DNA from: an uncultured Candidatus Saccharibacteria bacterium
GTDB taxonomy: Bacteria; Patescibacteriota; Minisyncoccia; Phycocordibacterales; WO2-35-19
Assembly (NCBI GenBank): GCA_964534305.1
Contig: CAZHPR010000001.1
Coordinates: forward strand, 26,944 to 90,943
DNA length: 64,000 nt
Reading direction: 5' to 3'
Part shown: one piece after another, positions 154-64,000 of the stretch
How positions within the stretch are numbered: the first letter of the stretch is position 1
Layout of the letters: each line of letters starts with the position of its first letter
Notes under the pieces: generated by a model
What the model was told of the DNA's origin: nothing
What the model saw: the letters and a program-made list of their open reading frames with translations, nothing else
Databases searched by the model: none
Translations under genes and position numbers: made by a program

Positions 154-3100
154 TTAGGCTACCATTTTCATAGGAGATTTTATATTTGAGACACCTTGGC
201 TGTGCTTCTCCATAACAAACCTACCAAGTCTCTTTGTGAAGTCTGCAACGTTCTCATTTTCATAAGGCTTTACATTGCCGTCTGTCATTTCGATAAGACC
301 CAAGAGTTGATCTCCGAATTCCTTATGCTTTGCTGATTTTGCAAGTTCGGAAACTACGTTTGGTGGCAACTTGGTATCAGCAGAATCATCTGTAAAGTAT
401 TTTATCACCTCATTCGCTGATAGTCCCTTCATTAATCCCCAGTCTTTTGTATTTGCTCCAATAACCTTACGTAGTCCAAGAAATCCCTCACTACCATAAG
501 CCCTCTGGATATCATTATTAAACGCTCTCTCTACTGCTGTATCCAAGCTTGAAAGGTCTCCTCCGTTATTTATGTTTCTTATCAAGTTATTTGTATCCCC
601 TCTCATTGTCCTGAGCGTATCAGGATTTATAATTCCCCTATTTGACGGCTCTACTATTTTTGAATCCCTCTCTAATTGTTCCAATCTCCCTCTCGCATTC
701 CTTATCTCATCTTCTAACACCTCCCTTTGAGGAAAAGCTCTATTATCTTGCAGTGAACCAGTTTTATTTCTAATCTCTTCTTCGATAAGTTTTTCTACTT
801 CACTTTGCAAACCATCAATCTTTTTCGATGTCCCTAGTACATCATCAATAACATCCACCCTACCACCAGGACCTGTATAATTATCTTTTACATAATTTAC
901 AGAATTTTTAAGCTCCAATATTTTATCTTCAAGAACCTTGATTCTATCAATGTCCACACCGAGTTCTCTTAGTTGGTTTATCTTTTCACTTATCCTGTCT
1001 ATTTTTTCTAAAGAACCACTCATAAAGGCGGCTCTCTCAGTTTCAGAAAAAATGCCTTTGTTTGATACAGGCGAATCTTCGATATCAGAAGATAGTGTTT
1101 TTGGTATTTCTGAAGGTTCTGGAGTCACTTTGTAAGAGTTTTCTATCTCTGTAGCTCTCTGTACCTCTTGGGCTTCTAGTTCAGGACTCATTCTCTCTGC
1201 TCTTGATATAACTTTTTCAAATTCAGCCTTGTCGTCAAAAGCCTCTGATAAATCAACTGGTTTGCCAACTTCAAGTTTTACACCATATTTAGGATCGGCT
1301 TCAAAGCCAAATTTCTCTGGAGAATTCAAAATCTTATTAGAATAGTAAGCCAATACGTTATTTTTCTGACCAACAGAAAGGGCAGCAAACCTTTCATTAT
1401 TCAAAAGAGCTTCTCTTGTAATGCCCCAAAGAGACCCCTCTTTTGGCACATTTTGCAACATAGCTTCTTTATAATTTGCACCGAACATTTCTTGCAAATC
1501 TACCGAGTCAGCATTTTCTGTAATCTCCGGCTTTACAGCTTCCACAGGTCTCATTTTTGGAACCTCAGTCGATTCTGAAGGAGCAGTTTTGGGTTTAACT
1601 AAATTTTCTGCAGCCCCTCCACCAGTTCCACTGTAGTAACTATTAAATAGTCCACCAGATACAGCACTGGTAATTCCTCCAGCAAGAGCGGCCATACCAA
1701 TCTTTTTAAGATTTAGATTTCTTAATCTTCTATCGAACTCTTTTTCCAGTTCTTCTATTCTTTTACTTTTTTCTTCAACAGAACCCTCCGAGTCTTTTAT
1801 TTTTTGTTCTTCTTGCGTTTTCCATTCTTGCAACTGCTCAGGCTTTAGTATTTTATTTGAAAGACCCATACCAAAACCGCTACCAACAAAAGCTCCAATA
1901 CCTCTTGCTAATCTATATCCTCCTGCACTAACGGCAGCCCCTAATGTGCCAGTCGGCGCCGCAAAAGCAACTCCAGCTGCAATAAGAGAAAATATGGTTG
2001 TATTTAAAGCAAATCTCTGGCCTCTAGTAAGGCCCGCATACCACTTCATACTCTTAGTACCGAGTAGACCTCTAAAACTCTCTTTGGCTTTGTCTAGAAT
2101 ATTTTCACCTCTTGCTGCTTTTATAGACGCATTATAGGAATCATTCTCAGATTTCAATACCTTATACAGCTCATCATCAAACTTAGATTTGACCAACTTT
2201 TCTTGCTCTGGTGTGAGAGGTCCATATACTTCACTTCCTCTTATCTCTGCCCCTATTTGTTTTAGGAGCTCTTCTTTTTTTGAATTATATTCATCTTTCA
2301 GAACAAAGAAACTTTTACCTGTTTTACCACTATAGTTGTGAGTTAGAGCATCCATCTCAGCAAGCTCTGACCTTATACTAGAAAGTTCCTGCAAAATTCT
2401 TTCCTTTTCAGGATTTTGGACTGCCTGCTCAACGTTATCAGCAACTTCTTCCACATTACCCAACTGAGTAGCCTCGGGGGACTCTTCCACACTTTCAACC
2501 TGCGGTTCAACAGCGGTTTTATCTTTCAAATATGGCAAAACTGTATTCCTAATAGCATTTAAAATATCTTCTCCTGTATTTAAAAAACCAACATCTAGGG
2601 TATTTGCTTCCTCCATATAAACAGGAAACACAACCTCCTCACCTTTTGTAATAATCTTAAAATTAGAGTCTTTTAGGATCCTCCTTTCATTTTCTTCTAA
2701 GTCTTGCAGGGCGCCGTCTATTTCCACCTTAAGATCATATTCTTCGGTAGACTTTTTTGGATCGTAATTGGATAAATCCACTCTTCCAAATTCAATCCCA
2801 TTGTTTTTTGGTTCCCTCAAGCCTTCCCGATCTTGATCCAACTGAGTAGACCCCAGTAATTCTCCCATGTTTTCAGCTTGCGGTTCAACAGCAGGCTTAT
2901 CCAAAATCGGATCTTCTTGAGACACACCCTCTTCTACAACAACATCTTGTTTTTCTTGAGGGGTGCTATTTTTAACTAATAATTTTTCCTCTTTTAAAAT
3001 TGGGATGACTGTATCCGTAACATATTGGTATATGTGTGTAGGCTCAGCATCAGCTCTTATTGTTAGCACCTTCTCAGATTCATCATAAACCGCAGAATTC

Positions 3101-3720
3101 ATCGCCCCCTCAACCAATCTTATTTTTATACCTTGAAAAAAATCTTTGATCTCTTTTTGAGTCTTCATTACTAAAGCCCTAAAAGCACGCGCGATATTGT
3201 CGTATGCTTTTATCTTTTCTTGCTCACTGAGATTTGTAAAATCCTCCCCTCTTATCAGCTCTATATTATTCCCAGTACTAGAAAAAACTCCTGCCAAATT
3301 TCTCACAGCACTAGCCAAACTAGTTGATTCTGGAGATACTGCGTTACTTAAGCTTACTACATCAAAACCCAATACAGGCTTTACTGGTCTCGGAACAGCA
3401 ACCTCACTTTGCTGAGTCCCACCAGGAATTTTGCTCTCTAGAGTTTCTGGTGCCTCTAAACCAATAGTATCTTGCGCTTGTTTAGCTTGTTTAGCTTGTT
3501 CTGCTCTTTCCAAAACTGTATTAGCCCACTTGCCTCTTTTGCTATGAGTTGTTTCTTTTTGATCAGGTACAACCTCGCCTTCATTCTCAGATATCCATTT
3601 CTTTTTATCACCAAGAGACCAGTTTTCAAAATTTTCTGGTCTTGAAGGTGTCTCATTACCATAGGTTTCTCCAAAATTAATCTCGCTAGTTGCCATGTTG
3701 AATTTAATTATAGAACACAA
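154..3720 (-). CDS. Giant hypothetical protein (1188 aa), acidic and coiled-coil rich, with internal repeats and two glycine-zipper-like hydrophobic segments
   Basis: Long uninterrupted ORF. Gly/Ala-rich hydrophobic stretches (AAGVAFAAPTGTLGAAVSAGGY...GAFVGSGFGMGL; GMAALAGGITSAVSGGLF) are flanked by Lys/Glu-rich coiled-coil-like sequence. No recognisable catalytic motif. Confidence 0.5.
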   Translation of the reverse strand: MCSIIKFNMATSEINFGETYGNETPSRPENFENWSLGDKKKWISENEGEVVPDQKETTHSKRGKWANTVLERAEQAKQAKQAQDTIGLEAPETLESKIPGGTQQSEVAVPRPVKPVLGFDVVSLSNAVSPESTSLASAVRNLAGVFSSTGNNIELIRGEDFTNLSEQEKIKAYDNIARAFRALVMKTQKEIKDFFQGIKIRLVEGAMNSAVYDESEKVLTIRADAEPTHIYQYVTDTVIPILKEEKLLVKNSTPQEKQDVVVEEGVSQEDPILDKPAVEPQAENMGELLGSTQLDQDREGLREPKNNGIEFGRVDLSNYDPKKSTEEYDLKVEIDGALQDLEENERRILKDSNFKIITKGEEVVFPVYMEEANTLDVGFLNTGEDILNAIRNTVLPYLKDKTAVEPQVESVEESPEATQLGNVEEVADNVEQAVQNPEKERILQELSSIRSELAEMDALTHNYSGKTGKSFFVLKDEYNSKKEELLKQIGAEIRGSEVYGPLTPEQEKLVKSKFDDELYKVLKSENDSYNASIKAARGENILDKAKESFRGLLGTKSMKWYAGLTRGQRFALNTTIFSLIAAGVAFAAPTGTLGAAVSAGGYRLARGIGAFVGSGFGMGLSNKILKPEQLQEWKTQEEQKIKDSEGSVEEKSKRIEELEKEFDRRLRNLNLKKIGMAALAGGITSAVSGGLFNSYYSGTGGGAAENLVKPKTAPSESTEVPKMRPVEAVKPEITENADSVDLQEMFGANYKEAMLQNVPKEGSLWGITREALLNNERFAALSVGQKNNVLAYYSNKILNSPEKFGFEADPKYGVKLEVGKPVDLSEAFDDKAEFEKVISRAERMSPELEAQEVQRATEIENSYKVTPEPSEIPKTLSSDIEDSPVSNKGIFSETERAAFMSGSLEKIDRISEKINQLRELGVDIDRIKVLEDKILELKNSVNYVKDNYTGPGGRVDVIDDVLGTSKKIDGLQSEVEKLIEEEIRNKTGSLQDNRAFPQREVLEDEIRNARGRLEQLERDSKIVEPSNRGIINPDTLRTMRGDTNNLIRNINNGGDLSSLDTAVERAFNNDIQRAYGSEGFLGLRKVIGANTKDWGLMKGLSANEVIKYFTDDSADTKLPPNVVSELAKSAKHKEFGDQLLGLIEMTDGNVKPYENENVADFTKRLGRFVMEKHSQGVSNIKSPMKMVA

Positions 3721-6918: not shown

Positions 6919-7986
6919 ATGAGTCAATATAAACTAAAAACAAATAAGCTGCCAAAAGGAGAAATTGAGATAGAGGGAGAGATAGACTCTTCCCTACTTC
7001 TTGAAGCACGAAAAAAAGCATTAAAAAAGATTGGCCAAGATGTTGAGGTTGACGGATTTCGCAAAGGAAATGTGCCAGAGAAAATAATCATAGATAAATT
7101 TGGAGAATCTTTCATCATGGAAGAGGCGGCTGAAATACTTCTTCAAGAACACTACCCTCTTATAGTTAAAGAGATGGACCTAGACACCATAGGTAGACCA
7201 AATATTTCTATAACAAAATTGGCCTTGGGCAATCCGCTCCAGTTCAAAATAAAAACAGCAACCCTACCAGAAATAAAACTCCCTGATTACAAAAAGATTG
7301 CGAAAGAAAAAAACTCAAAAAAAATTGAGATCCCGGAAGTTACCGAAAAGGAAATTGATGAGATACTACTACAGATAAGAAAAAATAAAGCTCATTTTGA
7401 CTGGCATAAATCAAATCCAAAAGAAGATGGCCACAACCATCCTGATTTTGAAAAAGAAGAAAATCTTCCAGTCTTAGATGACCAGCTTGCAAAAGAAGCG
7501 GGAAACTTTAAGGATCTTGCCGAGATGAAAGAAAAGATAAAAGAGAATATAAAAAAAGACAAAGAACTTAGGGAAGTAGAAAAAAGAAGGGGTGAAATAA
7601 TCGACGCCCTTGTAAAAGAAACTGATTTTGAGGTACCAGACATTTTGGTAGAGGCGGAAGTTTCAAAATATATGGCACAAATGCAAGACGATATAGAGAG
7701 AGCTGGGGGCAAGTTTAGCGAGTATCTATCACACATAAAGAAAACTGAAGATGATCTGAGGAAGGAGTGGCGAGAGCCGGCTGAAAATAAAGCAAAGGTA
7801 CAGCTTATATTCAACAAAATTGCCGAGACAGAAAAGTTGGAACCAAACAAAGAAATCCTAGAAAATGAAGTAAAACACTTGCTAGAACATTACCCAAATT
7901 CTAGCGAAGAAAACGCTCGTATCTACGTTTCTACTATTCTCCTCAACAGCGAAGTCCTCAAACTCCTAGAGAACCAAAAGGCTTAA
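6919..7986 (+). CDS. tig: Trigger factor with ribosome-binding N domain and C domain but no recognisable PPIase domain
   Basis: N-terminal GFRKGNVP signature and a tig-clpP neighbourhood. No FKBP-like segment is seen. Start is probably MSQYKL at 6919 rather than the ORF-track start at 6895. Confidence 0.75.
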   Translation: MSQYKLKTNKLPKGEIEIEGEIDSSLLLEARKKALKKIGQDVEVDGFRKGNVPEKIIIDKFGESFIMEEAAEILLQEHYPLIVKEMDLDTIGRPNISITKLALGNPLQFKIKTATLPEIKLPDYKKIAKEKNSKKIEIPEVTEKEIDEILLQIRKNKAHFDWHKSNPKEDGHNHPDFEKEENLPVLDDQLAKEAGNFKDLAEMKEKIKENIKKDKELREVEKRRGEIIDALVKETDFEVPDILVEAEVSKYMAQMQDDIERAGGKFSEYLSHIKKTEDDLRKEWREPAENKAKVQLIFNKIAETEKLEPNKEILENEVKHLLEHYPNSSEENARIYVSTILLNSEVLKLLENQKA

Positions 7987-8679
7987 GGCGGCGATGGCGG
8001 CGGTTTCGGCGCGCAAAACAAGAGAACCCAGAGAATACACTTGGGCTTCTTTTTGTTTAAATAGATCTAACTCCTTTGGAGACCAGCCACCTTCAGGCCC
8101 GATGAATAAGTTTACAGACTCCAGATTATAGTTTTCAGTTCCCCTCTTCTTTGCAAGGAGAGGGGTTAGGGGTGAGGTAGAAGAAGGCTCCAATATAATC
8201 ACCCCTCCTTCTGTTTCCTCAATACTATCTGCTAACTGCTTAATGCTATTTATCTCCGGTACATCAGCTCTGCCGCACTGCTCGCTTGCCTCTATCGCAA
8301 TCCTCTTTGCTCTTTCAAGGTTAAAACCTTTTTTCTCACTTCTTTCTGAAAGGATTGGAATTATTTTTGAGACCCCAAGTTCTGTCGCCTTTTCTATCAC
8401 CAGCTCAAGGTTATCTTTTTTTATCAAAGAAATATAAAGACTAATTTTATTTTTAGGGACCACTCCCCCTCTCTCTTCTAAGAGTCTCACCCAAGCTTCT
8501 CGATTGTTTATTGTTTCTATAACGTATAGGTATTCGCTCCCCCTACCGTCAAAGAGGACAACCTCGCTCCCAACATTGTATCTAAAGACACTTCTCCACT
8601 GGTGCATCAAATCTCTATCCTGCAACAGGGTCCTATCGCTACCTAAATCCTTTTTTATATAAAACCTATGTAGTCGCAT
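7966..8679 (-). CDS. rsmE: 16S rRNA (uracil1498-N3)-methyltransferase RsmE carrying a 15-aa in-frame repeat-element insertion
   Basis: RsmE family motifs (…LFIGPEGGWSPKE…, N-terminal PUA-like domain). The STSPLTPLLAKKRGT segment is encoded by the palindromic element at 8139-8183. Confidence 0.8.
   Translation of the reverse strand: MRLHRFYIKKDLGSDRTLLQDRDLMHQWRSVFRYNVGSEVVLFDGRGSEYLYVIETINNREAWVRLLEERGGVVPKNKISLYISLIKKDNLELVIEKATELGVSKIIPILSERSEKKGFNLERAKRIAIEASEQCGRADVPEINSIKQLADSIEETEGGVIILEPSSTSPLTPLLAKKRGTENYNLESVNLFIGPEGGWSPKELDLFKQKEAQVYSLGSLVLRAETAAIAALSLLVL
8139..8183. repeat. G+C-rich palindromic element (solo copy) inserted in frame within rsmE
   Basis: GTTCCCCTCTTCTTTGCAAGGAGAGGGGTTAGGGGTGAGGTAGAA. 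The same 45-bp unit is also at 11931-11975. Confidence 0.85.
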
Positions 8680-11739: not shown

Positions 11740-11779
11740 CCCTCCCCTGATCAAGGGGAGGGTTGGGTGGGGTTATTCC
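11740..11779. repeat. Palindromic element variant (solo copy) directly after the stop codon of the MBL ribonuclease gene
   Basis: CCCTCCCCTGATCAAGGGGAGGGTTGGGTGGGGTTATTCC. The hairpin loop resembles the 17609 element and the tail resembles the main family. Confidence 0.7.
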
Positions 11780-11788
11780 AAGATGGGG

Positions 11789-13237
11789 TTAATCCAAAAA
11801 GTATTCCTTACCGGGTTCGGGATAAATTGCTTCTATATCTAAGTACTCACGGATGCGTTGAGAGAGAAAGAGCGAAGAACGCGGTTCACCCATGATAGTA
11901 AAAACTTTTTTGAGAGAGTGTTGTTGTGTGGTTCCCCTCTCCTTTGCAAGGAGAGGGGTTAGGGGTGAGGTAGAACCTTCCGAAGCCTCCTCGACAAACT
12001 CCACCAAATTATCAGAATCTTTGTGTGAAGAGTAACCCTTTATTGTCTCTATCTTTGCTCTTACTTTTATTTTTTGACCATTTATCTTGACCTCACTCTT
12101 GCCGTCCTCAAGAGCCCGGCCCAAGCTACCCAGAGTTTGATACCCAACAAGGAGGAGGGTGTTTTTGTGATCGTCCAAAATATCAGCTTCATGAGCCAAA
12201 ACCCTCCCCCCTTCAGACATACCAGAGCCAGCAATTATTATCTTCGGGCCACCTTTTTTTATAACAGACTTACTTTCTTCAAAACCGTCTACAATATTGA
12301 GGCCAGGAAAATCAAATATGTTATCGCCCCTTTTTATCTCTTCTTGTACTTCCTTTTTAAAATCAGTTGCGTATTTTTTATAGATGTTTGTTACTTTTAT
12401 AGCCAGTGGAGAATCAAGATAGACAGGGACTTTCTCTATCTCCCCATCTTCTATCATGTTGTTTAGTTCGTACAGCATTACCTGAGTCCTTTCTATAGAA
12501 AAAGCTGGTATAACAATGGTTCCACCCCTCTTTATCCCCTCTTGGATCACCCCCTTAAACCTCTCTCTTCTTTCTTCTTTACTCTCATGATTTCTATCTC
12601 CATAAACACTCTCCATAACAATATAATTTGCTCCTTCTGGAATTTCTGTATCCGGTAATAATGGCGAAGGAGAATTGCCCAAATCTCCTGTAAAGGAAAT
12701 CTTGCGTACTTCATTCAAATCGAAAGATCCATAAGAAATATTTATTATGGCAGAACCGAGTATATGGCCAGCATTTTGCATATCTATCTTTATATCTTTA
12801 CCTAGGTTTATTGTTTGATTGTAATCGCAACCCTCCCACAAAGACATCGTTTTTTCTATATCCTTCTCTTCATAGAGATTTTTGTCGCGATGCCTAGACC
12901 TAAAAACTTTAAGAGCATCTAGGAGCATTGGCCTTGCAAGCTCCAGGGTTTCCTTTGTTGAAATTATTTTTCCACCAAAGCCCTCTCTCACAAGCTTTGG
13001 TATTTTGCCAATATGATCCATATGAGCATGAGTCACCAGTAGAAAATCAAAAGAAGACGGGTCGTATTTGAATGGCTCAAAGTTTTTTAGTTCATCATTG
13101 AAACTACCCTGGAGCAGACCACAATCAACCATAATCTTTGTACCAGCATAAAGAAATTCTATGTTTGCACCGGTTGCGGTCCCTACCCCACCCCAAAAAA
13201 TTAGTTTTGCATTTTTATCTTTATTTTGTTGACTCAT
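11789..13237 (-). CDS. MBL-fold beta-CASP ribonuclease (RNase J / CPSF-like) carrying a 15-aa in-frame repeat-element insertion
   Basis: HxHxDH motif (VTHAHMDHIG) and a beta-CASP-like central region. The C-terminal segment STSPLTPLLAKERGT is encoded by the element at 11931-11975. Confidence 0.7.
   Translation of the reverse strand: MSQQNKDKNAKLIFWGGVGTATGANIEFLYAGTKIMVDCGLLQGSFNDELKNFEPFKYDPSSFDFLLVTHAHMDHIGKIPKLVREGFGGKIISTKETLELARPMLLDALKVFRSRHRDKNLYEEKDIEKTMSLWEGCDYNQTINLGKDIKIDMQNAGHILGSAIINISYGSFDLNEVRKISFTGDLGNSPSPLLPDTEIPEGANYIVMESVYGDRNHESKEERRERFKGVIQEGIKRGGTIVIPAFSIERTQVMLYELNNMIEDGEIEKVPVYLDSPLAIKVTNIYKKYATDFKKEVQEEIKRGDNIFDFPGLNIVDGFEESKSVIKKGGPKIIIAGSGMSEGGRVLAHEADILDDHKNTLLLVGYQTLGSLGRALEDGKSEVKINGQKIKVRAKIETIKGYSSHKDSDNLVEFVEEASEGSTSPLTPLLAKERGTTQQHSLKKVFTIMGEPRSSLFLSQRIREYLDIEAIYPEPGKEYFLD
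11931..11975. repeat. G+C-rich palindromic element (solo copy) inserted in frame within the MBL ribonuclease gene
   Basis: GTTCCCCTCTCCTTTGCAAGGAGAGGGGTTAGGGGTGAGGTAGAA. Confidence 0.85.
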
Positions 13238-22753: not shown

Positions 22754-22843
22754 GGAGACGTGGCTGAGCTGGTCGAAAGCGCCTCACTGCTAACGAGGTA
22801 GGCCCTTTAAAAGGTCTCGAGGGTTCGAATCCCTCCGTCTCCG
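22754..22843 (+). tRNA. tRNA-Ser (anticodon GCU), class II with a long variable arm
   Basis: Manual fold: acceptor GGAGACG/CGTCTCC, anticodon loop CTGCTAA, long variable arm, T-loop GGTTCGAATCC. No encoded CCA. Confidence 0.8.
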
Positions 22844-24755: not shown

Positions 24756-27071
24756 TTAATTTAATTTTTTTGTTTTTATTCTAAGAGAATTGACCACCAC
24801 AGAAACACTTGAAAGAGCCATCGCAAACCCAGCAAATACAGGACTAAGCAACCAACCAAAGATCGGATAGAACACTCCCGCCGCAAGAGGGATCCCTACA
24901 ATATTGTAGATAAAGGCCCAAAAAAGATTTTGTTTTATACCCCGCATCGTTATCTTTGAAAGTTTTATTGATTTTACCAACTTTGATATATCGCCATGCA
25001 AAAGAGTTATCCCTGCTGACTCTATTGCAACATCAGTACCAGTGCCCATAGCAATTCCGATATCAGCCTGAGCCAGGGCCGGTGCATCGTTTACTCCATC
25101 CCCTGCCATGGCAACTATCCTACCCTCAGATTGAAGCTCTTTTATTTTTGATAATTTATCTTGAGGCAAAACGTTTGCAACAACCTGATCAATACCGACA
25201 CTTGAAGCGATATACTCCGCCGTCTTCTTATCATCTCCGGTAAGCATAACCACCTTTATTCCAATTTTGTGGAGATCCTTTATTGCGTCTTTTGATTCTG
25301 GTTTGACCTTGTCTGCAACCATCACAAAACCCAATAATTTCTCTTTGGTAGCAAACAAAACTGGAGTCTTACCTTGCTCTGTAAAAGCTTCCAGATCTGG
25401 TAAGTCAAGGTTTGTGAGTAAACTCTTTACAAACCTGACACTACCAACATAATAATCAACGCCTTCAATATTCGCCTTGACACCCTTTCCTTCAATATTC
25501 TCAAAATTAGATACTTCTTTTACTTCTAAACAAGTCTCTCCTGCATAGTTTACAATTGCATTAGCAATTGGATGTTCTGATTTTTTCTCAATAGAAGCAA
25601 TCAATGATACGAATTTATCATCTTCCAAATCAGATAAATTTTTTGTATCAACAACAACCGGCTTTCCCAAAGTGATTGTCCCTGTTTTATCAACAACAAC
25701 AGTATCAACTTTATGAAGCTTTTGGAGTGTAGTGGCATCTTTGATCAGAATACCCTCCCTAGCTCCCTTACCCACCCCGACAATTATGGCAGTTGGTGTC
25801 GCAAGACCAAGCGCACAAGGACAAGCAATAACAAGGACACTAACAAAAGAAACAACTCCGAAAGAAAAGGCTTGTGAAAAACCAAGATATTGTGTGCCCA
25901 ACAAAATCCAAACCGCCAAAGAAAGAGTAGCGATAACCAACACAGTAGGTACAAAAACGCTAGATATCTTGTCTGCAAGGGCCTGAATCGGTGCCCTACT
26001 ACCCTGGGCATTTTCTACCATCGTTATTATCTGAGAAAGAAGAGTTTCTTTTCCTATCTTTGTTGCTTTAAAAATAAAATGGCCATTAGTATTTAGCGTG
26101 CCGGAGACAACACTGTCTCCAACATTTTTTTCTATTGGTATTGGCTCTCCTGTAACCATTGATTCGTCAACAAAAGAATGGCCCTCCACAATATTTCCAT
26201 CAACTGGTATCTTTGCTCCTGGCTTTACTACGATACTATCACCAAGAATTACTTCGTTTATAGAAACTTCTTTTTCTTGGCCATCACGGACAACAATAGC
26301 GGTTTTTGCTTGAAGATTTAGGAGTTTTTCTATAGCATCTCCAGTTTTTAACTTTGATCTAGCTTCAAGATATTTTCCGAGAGTTATAAAAGTTATAACC
26401 ACAATTGTTATGTCATAATAAGTATATTCAACGTTTAAAAAAGGCCTCAAAGTTTCTTCAAAAGCTGAGACGACAAAACTGTAAACATAAGCTGTTAGTG
26501 TTCCTATGCCAATTAAAGTGTCCATATTCGCCTTGCCATAACGCAAAAAACGGTAAATACCAACAAGATATGGTTTACCGACTACAAAAAGAATATAGGT
26601 AGCTATAACCGGCAATAGATGATGAAAAAATTCACTTAAGACATCCCCCATCATTGGAACAAGTTCGTATTTTGATAGAATCTCCCAAAACATTATAAAA
26701 ACAGCAATAATACTTAGAAAAACTGAGGAAAAAACTTTGGATCTCATTTCTTCTATCTCTTTAATTTTTTCTGCCTTTGATTGGTTTAGTCCGAGGTGTT
26801 TTGCATGCTCTTCTTCGCTCATACCTGCCTGTGCAGACAGGCCCATATCTTCGGCACTCTGCCCATAAAGAGAATAGCCCAGCGGCTCTATTTTTTTAGA
26901 GAGTTGCAAGAGATCTACTTTTTTGTGATCAAAAGAAATTTTTGCACTTTCTGTCGCATAATTAACCTCAGCCGAATTTACACCAGAAGTTTTTTTGAGA
27001 GTATCTTCTATTATGCTTGCACAAGAAGCGCAGTGCATACCTTTTACTTTATAAGTTTTTTGGTTATCCAT
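24756..27071 (-). CDS. copA: Copper-translocating P1B-type ATPase
   Basis: N-terminal HMA domain ([12 protein letters not shown]), CPC motif in TM6 ([11 protein letters not shown]), DKTGTIT phosphorylation site, [10 protein letters not shown]. Confidence 0.9.
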
Positions 27072-29755: not shown

Positions 29756-29830
29756 ACCGCCCTTAGCTCAGTTGGTTAGAGCACAGAGCTTATACCTCTG
29801 GGGTCCTAGGTTCGAATCCTAGAGGGCGGA
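29756..29830 (+). tRNA. tRNA with anticodon UAU (tRNA-Ile2-type, AUA-reading)
   Basis: Manual fold: acceptor CCGCCCT/AGGGCGG, D-arm GCTC…GAGC, anticodon stem CAGAG/CTCTG with loop CTTATAC, T-arm CTAGG-TTCGAAT-CCTAG. No encoded CCA. Confidence 0.7.
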
Positions 29831-32955: not shown

Positions 32956-33373
32956 GGGGATGATCGGCCTAGACAATAAGAATATCTTTATAAATGCCAA
33001 AGAGAGCTGTGGTGACTCTTAAATCCGCCATAAATGATAACTGCAAACAAGGTTGTCACAAAAGCTAAGTCCGTTGCTTCTCCATACTTTGGGGTCAACG
33101 ATTTCGCTTTCGCTTACGTTAGAGCTTAATTAAGTTTCTTTCCTAAGCGACGCTATCCTTCTTATGTCTCATACGGAAGATCATGGTGTAATAAATTGAG
33201 GCTCTGGAAAATAGTTCTCCCCTATTTTCCGAAATGTTGGGAGATCGAAACTTTAGAATTTCGTCTGTTTGTATCTAGAGTTTTTAAATGGGCCTAGCCC
33301 AAAAAGCAGTCTATCTCTGGTAGAAATTTATAAAATACCTTATTGCATGCGCGTTCGATTCGCGCCATCTCCA
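32956..33373 (+). ncRNA. ssrA: tmRNA (SsrA)
   Basis: 5' GGGGAUGAUCGG… pairs with 3' …CAUCUCC-A. tRNA-like T-arm GCGCGTTCGATTCGCGC. Lies immediately downstream of smpB. Candidate tag frame ends in …FAFAYVRA-TAA. Confidence 0.7.
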
Positions 33374-33446
33374 CAAAATTAACGAGCGAACAAGGTGAGC
33401 GACTATAATTTTGTAGGACCCTGAGTTTATCGAAGGGTTTTTAATT

Positions 33447-43090: not shown

Positions 43091-43140
43091 CCTCCCCTCT
43101 CCTCTTGCAAGGAGAGGGGTTGGGGGTGAGGTAGATTATT
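43091..43140. repeat. Palindromic element (solo copy) abutting or overlapping the fusA stop codon
   Basis: CCTCCCCTCTCCTCTTGCAAGGAGAGGGGTTGGGGGTGAGGTAGATTATT. Confidence 0.8.
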
Positions 43141-45904: not shown

Positions 45905-45950
45905 TTCCTCCCCTCTCTTAGATTAAGAGAGGGTTAGGGTGAGTTATTTT
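45905..45950. repeat. Palindromic element (solo copy) filling the rpsL-rpsG intergenic spacer
   Basis: CCTCCCCTCTCTTAGATTAAGAGAGGGTTAGGGTGAGTTATTTTTA. Confidence 0.8.
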
Positions 45951-47383: not shown

Positions 47384-47428
47384 CCCCCTCTCTTAATTTA
47401 AGAGAGGGGTTAGGGGTGAGTTATTTTT
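47384..47428. repeat. Palindromic element (solo copy) that encodes the last 5 codons and the stop codon of the ComEC MBL-domain gene
   Basis: CCCCCTCTCTTAATTTAAGAGAGGGGTTAGGGGTGAGTTATTTTT. Confidence 0.85.
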
Positions 47429-54020: not shown

Positions 54021-54983
54021 TTAATCTAACGCTTCGATTCCAGGGAGGGTCCCATTGGCAAGGAAGTCGAGCATGGCGCCGCCAGCAGTCGAGACGAAGG
54101 TAAATTTGTCTTCTATATTAAGTTCTTTGATAGCCGAGAGAGTATCTCCACCGCCCACTATCACCTCCACTTTTTCATGTAATTCTGCTAGTCCTTGGGC
54201 AAGGGCTTTGGTCCCCTCAGTATATCCATTTTCATAATTACCCAAAGGGCCGTTCCACAAAACAAATTTAGAGACTCTCGCCTTTTCTAAAATAAGATCA
54301 ACAGTTGGCAAATCGGCATCGAGAGCTGAGTAATCACAGAGAGGAAAAAATATTTTAGGATTGGAAGAAAGTTTGGGGTCTTTCGAAGCCGGTAGAGCAA
54401 GAGTGCCCCCAACAAACACTACATCCGCAATATCTAAAAACTTTTCTAAAAGTGGAATCTTGGTCTCAAGTTTTGCACCACCAAGTATAAACAGAAATGG
54501 GTGGAGCGGATTAAAGGCTTTTGAAAGATTCTCTACTTCTTTCATAAAATTTATTCCTGCATACTTTTCACTCATAAAATTTGGTACTCCCACTACTGAA
54601 GCATGGCTTCGGTGAGAAACCGAAAACGCTTCATTAACATAAATCTCCCCCTGAGCAGCGAGCTCTTTTGCAAAACTTTCATCGTTTTCTTCTTCTCTAC
54701 TATCTATTCTTAGATTTGGCAAAAATTCTACGTGTGTTTTTAAAATAGGAAATTTGTTTTTTGCATATTCAAAAACCGGATCCATAGATTCTCCTGCCCT
54801 ACCAAAATGGCTCATCAAAACAACCTTGCCATTATTATCCAGTATATATTTTATTGTTTCTAATGAGGCAAAAATCCTTGAATCATCAGAAACCCTACCG
54901 TTTTTATCTACTGGCACATTCCAATCAACTCGGAGTAATACCCTTTTACCATCAAAATTTTTGACTGAAGTTATTGGCTTCAT
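54021..54983 (-). CDS. pgk: Phosphoglycerate kinase (compact, 320 aa)
   Basis: N-terminal …KRVLLRVDWNVPVD…DDSRI…S…TI… PGK signature. Confidence 0.8.
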   Translation of the reverse strand: MKPITSVKNFDGKRVLLRVDWNVPVDKNGRVSDDSRIFASLETIKYILDNNGKVVLMSHFGRAGESMDPVFEYAKNKFPILKTHVEFLPNLRIDSREEENDESFAKELAAQGEIYVNEAFSVSHRSHASVVGVPNFMSEKYAGINFMKEVENLSKAFNPLHPFLFILGGAKLETKIPLLEKFLDIADVVFVGGTLALPASKDPKLSSNPKIFFPLCDYSALDADLPTVDLILEKARVSKFVLWNGPLGNYENGYTEGTKALAQGLAELHEKVEVIVGGGDTLSAIKELNIEDKFTFVSTAGGAMLDFLANGTLPGIEALD

Positions 54984-55063
54984 ACTTTATATTTTAGCAG
55001 ATTAATAACTCACCCCCTATCCCCCTCTCTTACAACAAGAGAGGGGGGACCAAAAAATACAAT

Positions 55064-55624
55064 CTATTTCTGATTAAAATACTCTGGAATCTCATTTGCT
55101 TTAATAATAATCCTGTTTGGGAACATATTTCGTAGCTCATCCACCAAGGGATAAAATTTTGTGTTAACCACTAAAGATCCTACATTAATTTTAAACAAAC
55201 CTGTTTCGTCTGGTCTTTGTGGTTTTCCACCTGGAAATGGGTTGTCTTTTTCTAAAACAACTAAAAAATTACACTGGGTCATAAATCCTCCAAACATACC
55301 GCCTAATTTTCCAACGTCTCCTTTTATTCCACCATTTGAAAGAATGTTCAGAGCTGCTGTTACCCATTCAAGGTCTCTACCCCTAGTAATTCCGTGTGCC
55401 AAATAATTATTTAAAACTTCTGTTGGTATATCTCTCAGATAATAGTCAATGGCATTTTGATACCTTTCGGTTGCAAAAGGAGGATTCCATCCGTTTACAT
55501 CTTGATTAGCTTGAGCTGTTATTTCGGCATCGTATTTTTCAAGTAGCTCCTGAGCCACTTTCTCAGATTCCCCAAAAGGGACGAATTCTTGTTTTGGTTG
55601 TGGGTTTTGTGGTTGATTTTCCAT
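55064..55624 (-). CDS. Hypothetical protein (cargo gene of the cassette)
   Basis: ORF only. Gly-rich central segment. No family assignment. Confidence 0.4.
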   Translation of the reverse strand: MENQPQNPQPKQEFVPFGESEKVAQELLEKYDAEITAQANQDVNGWNPPFATERYQNAIDYYLRDIPTEVLNNYLAHGITRGRDLEWVTAALNILSNGGIKGDVGKLGGMFGGFMTQCNFLVVLEKDNPFPGGKPQRPDETGLFKINVGSLVVNTKFYPLVDELRNMFPNRIIIKANEIPEYFNQK

Positions 55625-55647
55625 ATTATCCAGGCCGCTAATTATTC

Positions 55648-55998
55648 TTATAATTTTAATTCTGTACTTCTTCTGATATTTTCTAAAACTTTATCCAAGT
55701 TGTTTAAAATATCATTATTCCAAAATCTTATAGTTCTTATATCTTTATCTTTTAAAAAGTCCTCGCGTTCTTGGTCGTATTCTACAGCACTTTTATGTTG
55801 TTCACCATCTAGTTCTATCGCAAGTCTTTTTTCTGCACAAAAGAAATCTAGTATATACGGGCCTGCACTATATTGTCTTAAAAATTTTAAATTGTTTACT
55901 TGTCTGTTCCTAATTTTTGACCAAAGGAGTCTTTCTGCTTCAGTTTGATTTGACCTGAGTTCACGTCGTCGCTCTAGTTGGTTTTGGTCGTTATACAT
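55648..55998 (-). CDS. DUF559 (Vsr-like) endonuclease-domain protein
   Basis: …EAERLLWSKIRNRQVNNLKFLRQYSAGPYILDFFCAEKRLAIELDGEQH…IRFWNN… Start set at the ATG at 55998; the ORF-track TTG start reads into the repeat. Confidence 0.85.
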   Translation of the reverse strand: MYNDQNQLERRRELRSNQTEAERLLWSKIRNRQVNNLKFLRQYSAGPYILDFFCAEKRLAIELDGEQHKSAVEYDQEREDFLKDKDIRTIRFWNNDILNNLDKVLENIRRSTELKL

Positions 55999-56171
55999 AT
56001 TTGTATGATTCCGGTTTCCCCCTTGTTGTAAGGGGTGAGAATGCGCAGTATTCGCAAGACTTTTTGAGATATTTTTATGCAATTAAAATATCCAAAAAGT
56101 GTACAGTCCTTGTAAGGGATTAGGGGGGTTATTCCCCCTATCTTGTTGTAAGAGAGGGGTTAGGGGGTGAG

Positions 56172-56939
56172 TTATTTTACATCCACACTTTTCAAAATTT
56201 CTGGAAACTCTTCTTTTTTTAGTGAAGCATGACCAACAAGAAATCCTTCTACATTACCGTAGTCTATTATGGCTCTAGCATTCGGGGCCTCAACAGCAGC
56301 TCCATAGAGGATACGCACAGAAGAAGCAATATCTTTACCAAACAATTCACCCAAAGATTTTCTGATAAAAAGGACTGTCTCGTGTATATCAGTTGGACTC
56401 ATTGCTTCTCTATAAGATTTTCCTATCGTCCAGACCGGCTCATAGGCGATAATAAGTCCCAACATATATTTCTTTTGTAAGCCGGAGATAGAATTTTTAA
56501 GTTGTTCTTTTAAGAACTCGAGATGACTTCCTTCTCTATCTCTAACACTTTCCCCGATACACAGGATTGGAGTAAGACCAGCTTCAAACACTGACTCTAA
56601 TTTTTTGTTTATTATTTTATTATCCTCACCCATTGCCCTCCTCTCAGAGTGCCCGACCAAAACAAACCTAACTCCCAAATCTTTGAGCATTTGATTGCTC
56701 ACTTCCCCAGTAAAGGCGCCCTTTTCTTCAAAATACGAGTTTTGTGCTGTAATAAATAGATTTTTAGGTCTGCTTATTTTTGACAACAGCCCAAGATACA
56801 CAAAAGGAGGAGCGACCAAAACCTCTGTATTTTTGAGTACTGAGGCGGTCTTTTTTGTAAAATTAAATATACTTTTTGCTTCTTCAAGAGAACTCGGGTT
56901 CATCTTCCAATTTGCTATAACTATATTTTTCTTTTTCAT
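56172..56939 (-). CDS. tpiA: Triosephosphate isomerase
   Basis: …IANWKMN… and …VGHSERR… motifs. Its stop codon lies inside the right inverted repeat. Confidence 0.9.
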   Translation of the reverse strand: MKKKNIVIANWKMNPSSLEEAKSIFNFTKKTASVLKNTEVLVAPPFVYLGLLSKISRPKNLFITAQNSYFEEKGAFTGEVSNQMLKDLGVRFVLVGHSERRAMGEDNKIINKKLESVFEAGLTPILCIGESVRDREGSHLEFLKEQLKNSISGLQKKYMLGLIIAYEPVWTIGKSYREAMSPTDIHETVLFIRKSLGELFGKDIASSVRILYGAAVEAPNARAIIDYGNVEGFLVGHASLKKEEFPEILKSVDVK

Positions 56940-60908: not shown

Positions 60909-62117
60909 TTATTTTATGGCATCAACAAGCGAGTATGTTGGCAAAAGCATTGCAATTGCAAAGAGACCCACTGCGATACCTATAAATATCATAAGTATTG
61001 GTTCTATTATGGTAGAAAGATCCTTGGTCTTTTGATCAACCTCCGCTTCATAAAAATCGGCTATATTGTCTAGCATATCTGTCACCTTTCCGGTCTCCTC
61101 ACCAACTGCAAGCATCTCACTCACAAATATTGGGTATAGATTAAAGGGTTTGGATAAACACTCAGAAAGTAATTCTCCTGTTTGAACTCTTTTGGTAGCT
61201 CCTTGAATAATTGCCTTAAAATAATGGTTTCTTAGAACTCCAGCGGTTATATCAAGGGCTGAAACTATATCCACCCCAGACGATATAAGAGAAGATAGGG
61301 TACGAGATGTTCTAGCAGCGTTGACTTCTCTAGTCATCGTACCAATAACTGGCAGATGAAGAAAAACAAAATCAGCAATATTCTTACCTCTCTTGGTTTT
61401 TAAGAAACTTGTGACACCAAATATAACCGCGACCGCAACCCCGAAGTTTATAAGCAAATTGTTTCTAATAAAATCACTTATCGCAATAATTATCCTTGTT
61501 GGTAAGGGCAGGTTTATATTCAGTCCTCTAAAAGTTTCGGTGAGAGTCGGCACCATATAAATCATAAGCAGGATACCCATTACAATCATAAGACTGATTA
61601 TTATGGAGGGATACATCATTGCCCCCTTTATTTTTTTGGTCAATTGACTTGATTTTTCTAGCTGACTTGCTACAACTCGCAACGAAAAAGAAAGCTTACC
61701 AGATTCTTCGCCTGCCTTAACCATCGAAACAAATATATCAGAGAAAATATCTTTATAGCTCTCCATTGCCTTGGATAGAGTATCTCCTTTGTTTATAGAA
61801 TCATAAAGCCCTTGGAGGACCGAAACAAATTTTTTATTCTTTGACTGTTTCTGCATGATGCTTATCGCCCTTGAAACAGAGAGACCAGCATCTATCATAA
61901 CCGCCAAATTTTTGGCAAAAGATATCACTTCTTGCGCCTTAACCCTTTTTAGAAAAGAGAAATTTAGAGATATTTTTCTACCAGAAACCTCTTCAACCGA
62001 GACAACGGTTGCCAGGTTTTTGCGCACCGCAAGGTAAAGCTCCTGTTTATTCTCAAATTCTCTTGTCTCTTCGTATTCTTTACCGTCCTTTATTGCTTTA
62101 TATTTGTACAACGACAT
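60909..62117 (-). CDS. pilC: Type IV pilus assembly platform protein PilC (GspF family)
   Basis: Two T2SS-F repeats and three TM helices. Confidence 0.85.
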   Translation of the reverse strand: MSLYKYKAIKDGKEYEETREFENKQELYLAVRKNLATVVSVEEVSGRKISLNFSFLKRVKAQEVISFAKNLAVMIDAGLSVSRAISIMQKQSKNKKFVSVLQGLYDSINKGDTLSKAMESYKDIFSDIFVSMVKAGEESGKLSFSLRVVASQLEKSSQLTKKIKGAMMYPSIIISLMIVMGILLMIYMVPTLTETFRGLNINLPLPTRIIIAISDFIRNNLLINFGVAVAVIFGVTSFLKTKRGKNIADFVFLHLPVIGTMTREVNAARTSRTLSSLISSGVDIVSALDITAGVLRNHYFKAIIQGATKRVQTGELLSECLSKPFNLYPIFVSEMLAVGEETGKVTDMLDNIADFYEAEVDQKTKDLSTIIEPILMIFIGIAVGLFAIAMLLPTYSLVDAIK

Positions 62118-62235
62118 AAATAGAAAATTAATTTTCTATTTAATTATATCAGTATAAAAAAATTTTTTTATAGAATATGTAAATAACTCACCCCCTGCCC
62201 CCTCTCTTACAACAAGAGAGGGGGTAAGAAAAAAA

Positions 62236-62610
62236 TTACTCAGGTCTGCAATATATCTCTAATCTAATATCACTCGGATCATCAAACCAGATAAATTCTT
62301 TATCACCATACTTATCAATTTTGATTCCGCTGTTTTTTATACCTACTTTATTTAAAACTCTCTCGAGTTCTCTTAATTCCTCTCCTGTTTTTACTCCAAA
62401 AGCCAAATGGTTCAAACTGGTTTTGTCTTTATCTGATTTTTCGTATTCTCCATAAGGCAGACCAAAAAATATTTTGGTTTCTCCAATTTTGTAAGCAACC
62501 TGATTTTTATCTTGATAGTCTGGTTTACCAAGAAAAGAAGAATAGAATTTTTCTGTCTTCTCAATGTTCTTAACTATCAAAACTATGTGGTCTATATATT
62601 TAGGGTGCAT
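62236..62610 (-). CDS. VOC-family (glyoxalase/bleomycin-resistance/dioxygenase) protein
   Basis: …IDHIVLIVKNIEKTEKFY… N-terminal beta-alpha-beta-beta-beta module. Confidence 0.7.
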   Translation of the reverse strand: MHPKYIDHIVLIVKNIEKTEKFYSSFLGKPDYQDKNQVAYKIGETKIFFGLPYGEYEKSDKDKTSLNHLAFGVKTGEELRELERVLNKVGIKNSGIKIDKYGDKEFIWFDDPSDIRLEIYCRPE

Positions 62611-62614
62611 ATTT

Positions 62615-62968
62615 TTATAGTTTATTTTTTAAAGAATTTTCTATTATAACTTTCAAAACTCCTTCAATATCTTTTACTACTTCATTATTCCAAAATCTTA
62701 TAGTTCTTATATCTTTATCTTTTAAAAAGTCCTCGCGTTCTTGGTCGTATTCTACAGCACTTTTATGTTGTTCACCATCTAGTTCTATCGCAAGTCTTTT
62801 TTCTGCACAAAAGAAATCTAGTATATACGGGCCTGCACTATATTGTCTTAAAAATTTTAAATTGTTTACTTGTCTGTTCCTAATTTTTGACCAAAGGAGT
62901 CTTTCTGCTTCAGTTTGATTTGACCTGAGTTCACGTCGTCGCTCTAGTTGGTTTTGGTCGTTATACAT
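62615..62968 (-). CDS. DUF559 (Vsr-like) endonuclease-domain protein, second near-identical copy
   Basis: Identical to the 55648 copy except for the C-terminal 20-25 residues. Confidence 0.85.
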   Translation of the reverse strand: MYNDQNQLERRRELRSNQTEAERLLWSKIRNRQVNNLKFLRQYSAGPYILDFFCAEKRLAIELDGEQHKSAVEYDQEREDFLKDKDIRTIRFWNNEVVKDIEGVLKVIIENSLKNKL

Positions 62969-63141
62969 ATTTGTATGATTCCGGTTTCCCCCTTGTTGTA
63001 AGGGGTGAGAATGCGCAGTATTCGCAAGACTTTTTGAGATATTTTTATGCAATTAAAATATCCAAAAAGTGTACAGTCCTTGTAAGGGATTAGGGGGGTT
63101 ATTCCCCCTATCTTGTTGTAAGAGAGGGGTTAGGGGGTGAG

Positions 63142-64000
63142 TTATTCCGAAACCACCCTGAGCACTTCCTCAATTGTTGTCAATCCTTGAGCAGCCTTGA
63201 AGATACCATCTTCCATCATGGTGAGCATCCCCTCTTTTTTTGCTTGCAGTTCTATATCTTCAGTTGTTCCGCCTTTGATAATTATATCCTTGATCGCACT
63301 TGAAACGTTGAGCACCTCATAGATACCAACTCTACCCTTAAAACCCTCCTCACCCACATCTTTGTTTGGTTTGTAAAAAGGTACGTTTTTCCATTCGTCT
63401 TTATTTCCTATTATTTTCTCTTCTTTCAAAGCCTTGAGTACTCTGTCCATATCAATAACCTTTGCAATGGAATCAACCTCGGCTTGAGTAAGGTAGTGTT
63501 TCTCACCTCGATCTACCAACTTTCTTACCAATCTCTGACCGATAACAACATCAAGAGTTGAGATCATGAGAAATGGCTCTACCTTCATATCTATAAGTCT
63601 AGGCACAGCACCAGCCGCTGAGTTGGTGTGTAAAGTAGAGAGAACCAGGTGTCCAGTAAGAGAAGCGTTGATAGCAAGAGAGGCGGTCTCATTGTCTCTA
63701 ATCTCTCCAACCATTATGATATCCGGGTCCTGTCTCACAAGAGTACGGAGTCCGGCTGCAAAGGTAAGACCTATTTCAGGCTTAACCTGAGTCTGATTAA
63801 CTCTTTTCATCTGGTATTCAATCGGATCTTCAATAGTAGAAATATTTACGTCTGGAACATTTAAGATATCAAGCATTGTATAGAGGGTGGTGGACTTTCC
63901 GCTTCCAGTAGGACCAGTTGTAAGTACCATACCGGTTGTGTGCTGCAAAGCCTTGTGCAAAACATCAAGACCTTCTCCATGAAAACCAAGGGCTTCTAGA
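63142..64000 (-). CDS. pilB: Type IV pilus assembly ATPase PilB/GspE, C-terminal ATPase domain; the gene continues beyond the window end
   Basis: Walker A GPTGSGKSTT, Asp box, Walker B and His box of GspE-family ATPases. Its stop codon lies inside the right inverted repeat of the cassette. Confidence 0.8.
   Translation of the reverse strand, partial: LEALGFHGEGLDVLHKALQHTTGMVLTTGPTGSGKSTTLYTMLDILNVPDVNISTIEDPIEYQMKRVNQTQVKPEIGLTFAAGLRTLVRQDPDIIMVGEIRDNETASLAINASLTGHLVLSTLHTNSAAGAVPRLIDMKVEPFLMISTLDVVIGQRLVRKLVDRGEKHYLTQAEVDSIAKVIDMDRVLKALKEEKIIGNKDEWKNVPFYKPNKDVGEEGFKGRVGIYEVLNVSSAIKDIIIKGGTTEDIELQAKKEGMLTMMEDGIFKAAQGLTTIEEVLRVVSE

Follow-up and report, generated by a model that had tools for sequence, protein, structure and literature searches.

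What kind of event leaves two genes of one bacterium, set in unrelated surroundings, identical base for base over several hundred nucleotides and then abruptly different within their last codons? The question was raised by a 64,000-nt stretch of DNA (the window) of an uncultured Candidatus Saccharibacteria bacterium, positions 26,944 to 90,943 of contig CAZHPR010000001.1 (GenBank assembly GCA_964534305.1), in which a preliminary description had noted a 464-bp segment at 55713-56176 that recurs at 62683-63146, with part of a DUF559 gene in each copy. The reading favoured here, with a probability of roughly 0.7, is that the copies are the ends of two paralogous cassettes, E1 and E2, each carrying a DUF559 gene bracketed by predicted triplex-forming repeats, and that these ends were homogenised by gene conversion after E2 had arrived. 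The two copies of the repeat are:

55712-56176, minus strand: repeat copy A, right end of cassette E1; 0 mismatches against 62682-63146; Logan contigs L120 and L219 each have one end 30 nt inside it.
62682-63146, minus strand: repeat copy B, right end of cassette E2, located by base comparison; Logan contigs L129 and L216 start at 62711, 30 nt inside it.

Direct base-by-base comparison confirmed the segment and extended it by one base on the left, to 465 bp without a mismatch, and chance origin of this identity is excluded. In a repeat search of the whole 64-kb window it was the only direct repeat longer than 64 nt; the description of the window as otherwise unique holds to that extent, but not for the terminal motif of 40-45 nt, which is itself present about 10 times. 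Within each copy the right terminal repeat accounts for 44 nt and the leader for 135 nt, followed by the first ~287 nt of an ATG-started DUF559 open reading frame (ORF). Identity stopped abruptly at either end: to the right the flanks were unrelated, being the 3′-ends of tpiA and pilB, respectively, and to the left the 3′ tails of the DUF559 genes were about 59% identical (41 of 70 aligned columns). The two proteins were identical through ...RTIRFWNN and differed in the last 21-22 residues, in agreement with the earlier statement that the sequences diverge sharply inside the DUF559 3′-ends and that the proteins differ in their C-terminal residues only.

Exact-protein look-up in independent assemblies retrieved contigs of this population and of related ones. 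Logan k-mer contigs from SRR13355620-22, 100% identical to the window, ended exactly 30 nt (k-1) inside the repeat at three of its four boundaries, namely E1 right (L120), E1 left (L219) and E2 left (L129 and L216), as expected of a k=31 graph that meets a true repeat with several flanks. These breaks show that the repeat has at least two contexts in the reads, and thus it is not a collapse artefact. The 465-bp repeat is a genuine two-copy sequence, while small differences within its interior may be compatible with these contig data. It is very improbable that repeat collapse or a chimeric join in the metagenome-assembled contig produced one of the copies or their perfect identity. In favour of such an artefact, the exact repeat is longer than short-read k-mers, the independent Logan assemblies were unable to cross it, and exact-protein look-up found the full E2 DUF559 protein on record in no other assembly. 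Against it, the graph branches at three distinct boundaries, and in the reads at least three different flanks adjoin the shared segment; moreover, the unique parts of both cassettes (the VOC gene with pilC, and ORF186 with pgk) were assembled independently, and in samples lacking E2 the contigs pass straight through E1. The assembly hazard foreseen in the preliminary description was nevertheless real, in that an exact repeat of this kind breaks short-read assemblies, as it did the contigs of SRR13355620-22.

The repeat copies form the upstream ends of two minus-strand cassettes, in which a terminal motif, a leader of about 135 nt, the DUF559 gene, an unrelated cargo gene and an inverted terminal motif follow one another in the direction of transcription. 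Their parts are:

55004-56176, minus strand: cassette E1, between tpiA (56172-56939) and pgk (54021-54983), bounded by inverted 44-nt motifs and present in all related strains examined (L123-L128).
62182-63146, minus strand: cassette E2, between a gene for a pilB-like T2SSE ATPase (63142-) and pilC (60909-62117); the part missing from empty alleles is 62190-63142 (953 bp).
55648-55998, minus strand: DUF559 copy 1, 116 amino acids from ATG; Pfam PF04480, E 4e-33; NCBIfam PRK09767/YcjD-like; PDB 3HRL, E 4e-27.
62615-62968, minus strand: DUF559 copy 2, 117 amino acids; Pfam PF04480; the C-terminal 22 amino acids are unlike those of copy 1.
55064-55624, minus strand: E1 cargo, an ORF of 186 amino acids (ORF186) with 13 homologue clusters and no match in Pfam, NCBIfam or PADLOC.
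62236-62610, minus strand: E2 cargo, a VOC/glyoxalase-family gene of 124 amino acids (Pfam PF00903).
56134-56176, minus strand: right terminal BoxC/TM-like motif of E1, with pyrimidine arm, loop, purine arm, TTA and G-rich mirror strand.
55004-55048, plus strand: left terminal TM-like motif of E1, inverted relative to the right one; 12 of 12 allowed triads with the three-block triplex detector; predicted hairpin of -12.4 kcal/mol, z -4.9.
63104-63146, minus strand: right terminal TM-like motif of E2, with the pilB TAA stop within its AATAAC end.
62182-62224, plus strand: left terminal TM-like motif of E2; predicted hairpin of -12.7 kcal/mol, z -5.4.
56000-56133, minus strand: leader of E1 (identical sequence at 62970-63103 in E2), in which an 83-nt indel interrupts a second tandem TM unit, itself degenerate, and a short CCCCTTACAACAAGGGG hairpin precedes the ATG by about 20 nt.

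The 44-nt terminal motif reads AATAACTCACCCCC-TAA-CCCCTCTCTTA-CAAC-AAGA(G/T)AGGGGG, and the 44-nt arms of the terminal inverted repeats are 93% complementary. In E1, as in E2, the stop codon of the upstream neighbour (TAA of tpiA) falls inside the AATAAC end of the right motif, and the leader holds degenerate copies of the motif. The 83-nt indel that splits the second tandem motif (~56027-56119 and 62997-63089) is found in both window copies and in L126; it is missing from L125, L127 and L128, in which two intact tandem units precede the DUF559 gene.

The E1 orthologues of four related strains (L125-L128) bear directly on how the two ends became identical. Their DUF559 coding sequence is the same as that of the window. 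The right motif and leader contain 4-5 positions at which window E1 agrees with window E2 and not with these orthologues. Variants common to E1 and E2 of the window and missing from the E1 orthologues point to homogenisation within this genome. The cargo genes, the DUF559 tails and the left terminal repeats differ between the cassettes, and thus the identity represents a partial conversion tract rather than duplication of a whole element. The proposal of a recombination or conversion breakpoint inside DUF559 is supported accordingly by what lies beyond it, namely tails of about 59% identity, unrelated cargo and left repeats of 86% identity; among the very recent duplication, transposition or gene conversion that had been suggested, the evidence favours intragenomic conversion. 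As a bare repeat, the locus is ordinary: ectopic gene conversion between two paralogous cassettes. Non-reciprocal recombination would have overwritten 465 bp of one cassette with those of the other after both had come to lie in one genome. One limit of the tract would be the last base of shared homology, at the outer end of the terminal repeat; the other would lie at the codons for RFWNN, the best-conserved stretch of DUF559, past which the copies may be too different to pair.

Duplicative transposition of the whole element from one site to the other, with later replacement of the cargo end, would also yield two copies, and the terminal inverted repeats, the presence/absence polymorphism described below and the nuclease gene do recall an insertion sequence. 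This route is highly unlikely. With unrelated cargo, diverged tails and diverged left repeats, E2 is not a copy of E1, and these non-homologous left halves largely refute it; in addition, neither a target-site duplication nor a recognisable transposase was observed, and searches of Pfam, NCBIfam and PADLOC found no recognisable transposase or integrase in the cassettes, only DUF559 and cargo.

Empty E2 sites were found in related strains. In L127, L128 and L130, pilB is followed by pilC with a spacer of 71 nt, and an identical PilC protein is encoded; L127 and L128 also carry E1, and L130 ends before the E1 locus. Relative to these strains the extra sequence in the window is 62190-63142, and thus E2 represents a strain-specific insertion of 953 bp. 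The empty junction reads GTTTCTGAGTA|GAGTTATTTACA and the filled one GTTTCGGAATA|ACTCACCCCC...GGGGGT|GAGTTATTTACA. Compared with L127, the 75 nt of pilB closest to the junction contain 13 mismatches, versus ~1.3% divergence farther out, and on the pilC side 72 nt are identical. The patch of ~66-75 nt next to the junction is almost entirely synonymous, with only two amino acid changes in 285 codons of pilB. It looks like a co-converted donor flank, to judge from the substitution pattern, and the probable source of E2 is homologous recombination with a diverged donor in which it already lay between pilB and pilC. In pilC, 15 substitutions separate the window from L127 and leave the protein identical. 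At E1, the interior differed from that of L127 by one substitution in 951 nt, versus 1.05% in the tpiA flank and 5.98% on the pgk side; a near-invariant interior between diverged flanks indicates that breakpoints of recombination between strains fall at the cassettes, and recent spread of the E1 interior itself is possible.

These data also bear on the possibility that the 465-bp unit is a circulating allele that reached each cassette independently from elsewhere, be it other cells or other loci, through homing or recombination between genomes. Strains with flanking genes 1-6% apart have one and the same DUF559 coding sequence (100% identity), suggesting recent horizontal spread of the E1 interior, and E2 shows a patch of donor flank. 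We nevertheless consider independent arrival improbable: the repeat and leader variants of window E1 and E2 are missing from E1 of L125-L128, and a single intragenomic event is more parsimonious than two imports that happen to match at all 465 bp.

Conversion after the arrival of E2 thus remains the favoured reading, and several observations weigh against it or against a simple form of it. The direction of conversion is ambiguous, with the DUF559 coding part suggesting that E1 was the donor and the window-specific repeat and leader variants suggesting E2, or two events. Comparison of the empty with the filled pilB-pilC junction showed no target-site duplication at E2, and the empty allele keeps GAGTTATT, identical to the last 8 nt of E2, so that insertion with a target preference and an excision footprint are not separable; a target-site rule drawn from this single empty/filled pair was given up as ambiguous. 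Only one insertion polymorphism was found, that between pilB and pilC.

The proteins encoded by the two DUF559 genes matched PF04480 with 113.9 and 114.1 bits, against a gathering cutoff of 20.6, and covered 104 of the 109 model positions. An acidic/histidine core, consisting of the D in ...DF(Y/F)C, E-x-D-G and H, was conserved, and residues D51, E62, D64, G65 and H68 were invariant in 13 sequences from several phyla, both window copies included. Profile searches against PDB matched 3HRL, an 'endonuclease-like protein' of Neisseria (E 4e-27), and weakly 3R3P, the catalytic domain of the homing endonuclease I-Bth0305I (E 0.016). The window proteins are accordingly predicted to be Vsr-fold PD-(D/E)XK nucleases. 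The family is large, with 22,471 clusters at 50% identity (E <= 1e-3).

The cargo genes appear to be captured ordinary genes. Homologues of the VOC cargo in other Paceibacterota, at 80-89% identity, lie in ordinary contexts, and no DUF559 gene was found in those inspected (L220-L226). The two contexts of ORF186 homologues examined (L230-L231) had no called DUF559 gene and no TM motif by scan, and none of the four cargo-homologue contexts that were scanned contained a TM motif. A role of the cargo as dedicated partner of DUF559 was thus ruled out by homologues occurring elsewhere without either. An analogy with integron cassettes, suggested by attC-like hairpins and the VOC cargo, was also abandoned: the cassette ends are unlike the R''/R' core consensus, and the one integrase noted in related strains is a Phage_integrase-family gene at a distance of several kb. 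PADLOC returned no significant defence-system match, and a promoter and terminator scan gave no convincing promoter, with terminator-like matches on the non-transcribed strand only. In one of the VOC contexts, a Paceibacterota metagenome-assembled genome (MAG; L220, GCA_964440955.1), a group I intron at 3177-3439 (Rfam RF00028, 78 bits) splits a tRNA-like gene just upstream of the VOC homologue; ARAGORN makes no tRNA call there.

The terminal motif was compared with known bacterial repeats. Units in the window consist of three blocks, a pyrimidine arm, a purine arm and, after a TTA loop, a G-rich mirror strand, in the form CCCCTCTCTTA...TAAGAGAGGGG TTA GGGGTGAGTT. A triplex detector based on the purine-motif triad rule found 8 units in the window, to which two right ends were added after checking by eye, and found none in five shuffles. 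Family units showed 9-12 allowed triads of 10-12 (G*G-C and A/T*A-T) and predicted hairpins of -10.6 to -12.7 kcal/mol (z -2.8 to -5.7). The ~10 copies were dispersed over the 64 kb, and inverted pairs of the motif were observed at many loci. By these features the terminal repeats are AT-shifted members of the BoxC/PIT/TM family of predicted intrastrand-triplex repeats. The first description of BoxC came in the paper of Bergler et al. 1992 on envM (= fabI); the repeat was later termed PIT element and then TM or TMECO, a potential intrastrand triplex (PMC4666352). Holder et al. 2015 found TM motifs to be widespread and their loci hypervariable, and wrote on mobility genes that 'we never found ... 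transposases or integrases'; by their summary, Hoyne & Maher had found neither promoter nor terminator activity (PMC4666352). The strict TMECO pattern CCCTCNCCC N3-6 GGGNGAGGG N3 GGGNGAGGG had no match in the window, and was matched in L198, L200, L172, L019, L040, L117 and E. coli (L228). A scan with one genome per species gave at least 119 loci matching AACTCACCCC-N1-6-CCCCTCTCTTA; among the matches listed were Patescibacteria, Bacteroidota, Ignavibacteriota, Zixibacteria, Proteobacteria, Nitrospirae, Aminicenantes and others, including megabase contigs and a complete chromosome, and nearly identical motifs of ~35 nt were observed across unrelated phyla. In a MAFFT alignment of 99 copies the 3′ arm was misaligned. 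Rfam had no RNA family for the motif or the leader in gathering and E-value scans, and a literature search with motif strings returned unrelated primer matches only. Termination was rejected as the main role of the repeat, since the sequence after the hairpin on the transcribed strand is rich in A and not in U. In nine Saprospiraceae MAGs (L006, L008, L020, L030, L038, L039, L064, L105 and L113), an insert of ~35-45 nt in the hairpin loop gives a lineage-specific enlarged variant with the same head and stem, often clustered.

Motif copies outside the cassettes lie close to, or within, genes of the window:

47384-47425, minus strand: solo TM-like motif of the same subfamily as the cassette ends, encoding the last four codons and stop (ITHP*) of an MBL/ComEC-like gene.
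45910-45947, minus strand: solo TM-like motif, 2 nt after the rpsL stop codon.
43094-43133, minus strand: solo TM-like motif of the GGGGTGAGGTA subfamily, 2 nt after the fusA stop codon.
8141-8179, minus strand: TM/BoxC-like motif in frame within an rsmE-like 16S rRNA methyltransferase gene (ORF 7966-8679), translated as TSPLTPLLAKKRG.
One of 11740-11774 and 11933-11972: motif in the 3′ part of a beta-CASP/RNase J-like ORF (11789-13237, minus strand), exactly where the RMMBL match stops.
The other of 11740-11774 and 11933-11972: a second motif, of another subtype, ~13-15 nt beyond the stop of that ORF.

In the three solo motifs (43094, 45910 and 47384) the G-rich third strand is directed toward the gene end. 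The Pfam Methyltrans_RNA match of the rsmE-like protein (amino acids 77-235) spans the motif insertion.

Pairing of the motif with DUF559 was assessed in a motif-blind sample of 80 metagenomic loci picked by DUF559 protein similarity alone (five-sequence alignment), 58 of which had enough flank; structural detectors were used, since the motif varies and the hairpin is self-complementary. The full three-block motif was present within 200 nt upstream of DUF559 in 48 of the 58 loci, within 250 nt downstream in 49 and on both sides in 43, with 0.03-0.04 motifs expected per flank from the background density elsewhere in those loci (0.137/kb). With a simpler hairpin detector the numbers were 51, 55 and 48, respectively. 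In the commonest layout (34/58) the third strands face the DUF559 gene, with its ATG in ...GGGGAGTT-ATG and its stop in G-TAA-CYCCC, and the paired motifs of a locus are usually of two different subtypes. Approached from the motif, 10 of the scan loci listed had a DUF559 gene within 1.5 kb, usually bracketed by the motif. Matches to the strict TMECO pattern flank DUF559 genes on both sides in L198 and also in L200 and L172; in E. coli one adjoins ycjD. No paper linking DUF559 to BoxC/PIT/TM repeats was found in the literature. 'DUF559 domain-containing protein' has been reported to be enriched 14-fold among the predicted targets of programmed inversion (PMC9881135), which fits the presence of flanking inverted repeats.

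In E. coli K-12, the DUF559 gene ycjD lies between sapF and fabI, with a TMECO (BoxC) copy ~170 nt downstream of ycjD, in the region upstream of fabI (envM), in the form CCCCTCT-GGGG-AGAGGG-TTA-GGGTGAGGGG; BoxC as first described reportedly lay upstream of envM. A 49-nt probe of this motif was found at a median of 17 places per genome in 5,426 E. coli genomes. In the K-12 sequence (NC_000913.3; L228 16240-16420) a duplicated fragment of the ycjD 3′-end, a degenerate motif and the full TMECO lie downstream of ycjD. In ~38% of the 5,426 genomes homology to the ycjD locus breaks ~36 nt before TMECO, and the one of these that was inspected, an O157:H7 strain, carries a TetR/RND efflux island there.

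From this pairing we infer that DUF559 is a putative nuclease partner of BoxC/PIT/TM repeats. A DUF559 nuclease would recognise, or cut at or near, the flanking triplex/hairpin repeats; repair by homologous recombination would copy the cassette into other motif-bearing sites, and the same repair would convert one copy by another, as in the 465-bp tract. Cutting and repair may in the same way make TM loci unstable, and neighbouring genes may be captured as cargo. The limits of the conversion tract, at the last shared base and at the last conserved DUF559 block, fit such a cut-and-repair model. We put forward only tentatively, as a possibility somewhat short of even odds, that DUF559 (~22,000 clusters) and BoxC/PIT/TM repeats together form a pan-bacterial selfish system, similar to REP-RAYT but with a Vsr fold and with recombination-dependent, homing-like copying.

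Several points speak against such a partnership. The window cassettes and their closest relatives have their third strands directed outward, a minority layout (2/58). Within a locus, the similarity of the upstream to the downstream motif exceeds that of random pairs only slightly (0 of 2000 permutations reached the observed mean). The two solo motifs that were checked (45910 and 47384) hold the same position in all related strains retrieved, and no polymorphism of solo motifs was observed in these strains. Caulobacter VsrA, the one studied DUF559 protein, has been interpreted as a T/G mismatch repair nuclease (PMC12907096).

On a rival explanation, the triplex/hairpin repeats would be host elements, such as 3′-end mRNA stabilisers, insulators or regulators of DUF559 expression, DUF559 would be a repair or structure-processing nuclease that happens to lie between them, as the interpretation of VsrA would have it, and the 465-bp identity would have arisen by ordinary ectopic recombination between dispersed repeats. 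In this direction point the solo motifs, which do not vary among strains and adjoin, always in one orientation, the stop codons of housekeeping genes, and the location of DUF559 start and stop codons inside motifs, which could serve autoregulation; the negative promoter and terminator results of Hoyne & Maher leave the role of the repeat undefined rather than excluded (PMC4666352). Near-identical motifs in unrelated phyla, in-frame insertions in conserved genes and motifs lacking a U-tract after the hairpin on the transcribed strand speak against it, as do a whole cassette that is polymorphic together with donor flank and the hypervariability of E. coli TM loci, traits of selfish or mobile DNA rather than of conserved regulators. 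On balance this host-element explanation is less likely than not.

Unlike the bare repeat, its context is out of the ordinary, and the proposed partnership of DUF559 with the repeats would join two puzzles in one hypothesis. DUF559 is among the large nuclease families whose function is uncharacterised. BoxC/PIT/TM repeats have been known since 1992, are conserved in distant bacteria and occur at unstable loci, without a published function or mobility gene (PMC4666352); the cross-phylum link is testable in E. coli with YcjD and the TM copies, and, if true, DUF559 action would account for the hypervariability of TM loci in that species. In the present genome, the cassettes mark recombination breakpoints and a strain-specific insertion in conserved glycolysis and pilus clusters.

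Several groups of known elements resemble the cassettes. REP/REPIN-RAYT systems likewise consist of short palindromic units with an asymmetric 'head', with many solos and inverted doublets, a pair of inverted units flanking a single nuclease-type gene, positions just downstream of genes and no target-site duplication. The gene flanked here is of the Vsr-fold PD-(D/E)XK type, in contrast to the Y1 HUH (IS200/IS605-like) transposase of RAYTs, and no Y1_Tnp match was obtained; DUF559 can moreover occur in several copies, and the near-identity of its flanking units in different phyla suggests horizontal transfer. RAYTs are inherited mainly vertically. Homing endonuclease genes, such as that of I-Bth0305I ('EDxHD' family, PDB 3R3P), share a related catalytic fold by the weak profile match, as well as presence/absence at a fixed site, a co-converted flank and homogenisation of copies by recombinational repair, here at a single locus. 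The cassettes differ from them in lying outside introns and inteins, in being bracketed by structured repeats and in the ability to carry cargo. Small structured repeats such as Rickettsia palindromic elements, reportedly described by Ogata et al. in 2000, and miniature inverted-repeat transposable elements (MITEs) are said to insert in frame into conserved protein genes. In-frame insertion (in rsmE) and positions next to stop codons are shared with the motifs of the window, which differ in that no duplication of TA or other sequence was seen and in having three-block triplex symmetry rather than simple terminal inverted repeats. With insertion sequences, or MITEs mobilised by a transposase, the cassettes share terminal inverted repeats, without a target-site duplication or a recognisable transposase. 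Vsr and Vsr-like repair nucleases (E. coli Vsr; Caulobacter VsrA, PMC12907096) belong to the same superfamily, and the family-invariant DUF559 columns are present in both copies; in contrast, the cassettes have no linked cytosine methyltransferase, are flanked by triplex repeats and are polymorphic.

The closest likeness in the repeats themselves is to BoxC/PIT/TM elements (Bergler 1992; Hoyne & Maher 2000, 2002; PMC4666352), with which the window units share the pyrimidine arm, a loop of 3-6 nt, the purine arm, a short second loop (often TTA) and the G-rich mirror third strand, as well as intergenic and dispersed occurrence as singles and inverted pairs (type A with type B in E. coli; PMC4666352), conservation across taxa and location at variable loci. 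They differ in being AT-shifted, in occurring in Patescibacteria and many non-proteobacterial phyla and sometimes inside coding sequences, and in bracketing DUF559 genes, whereas no mobility or nuclease gene has been reported with the published elements.

Several further features of the region were recorded. In one related strain (L214 1-850, SRR12404947) a PaaX_M-like gene lies downstream of rpsG, where the window and the other strains have fusA. Rfam gathering matches identified a tmRNA gene at 32956-33376 and tRNA genes at 22754-22843 and 29757-29830, all unrelated to the repeat. A 64-nt internal direct repeat at 2460-2523 and 2838-2901 (75% identical, 378 nt apart) was located in the large ORF 154-3696, and probably reflects a repeated protein module.

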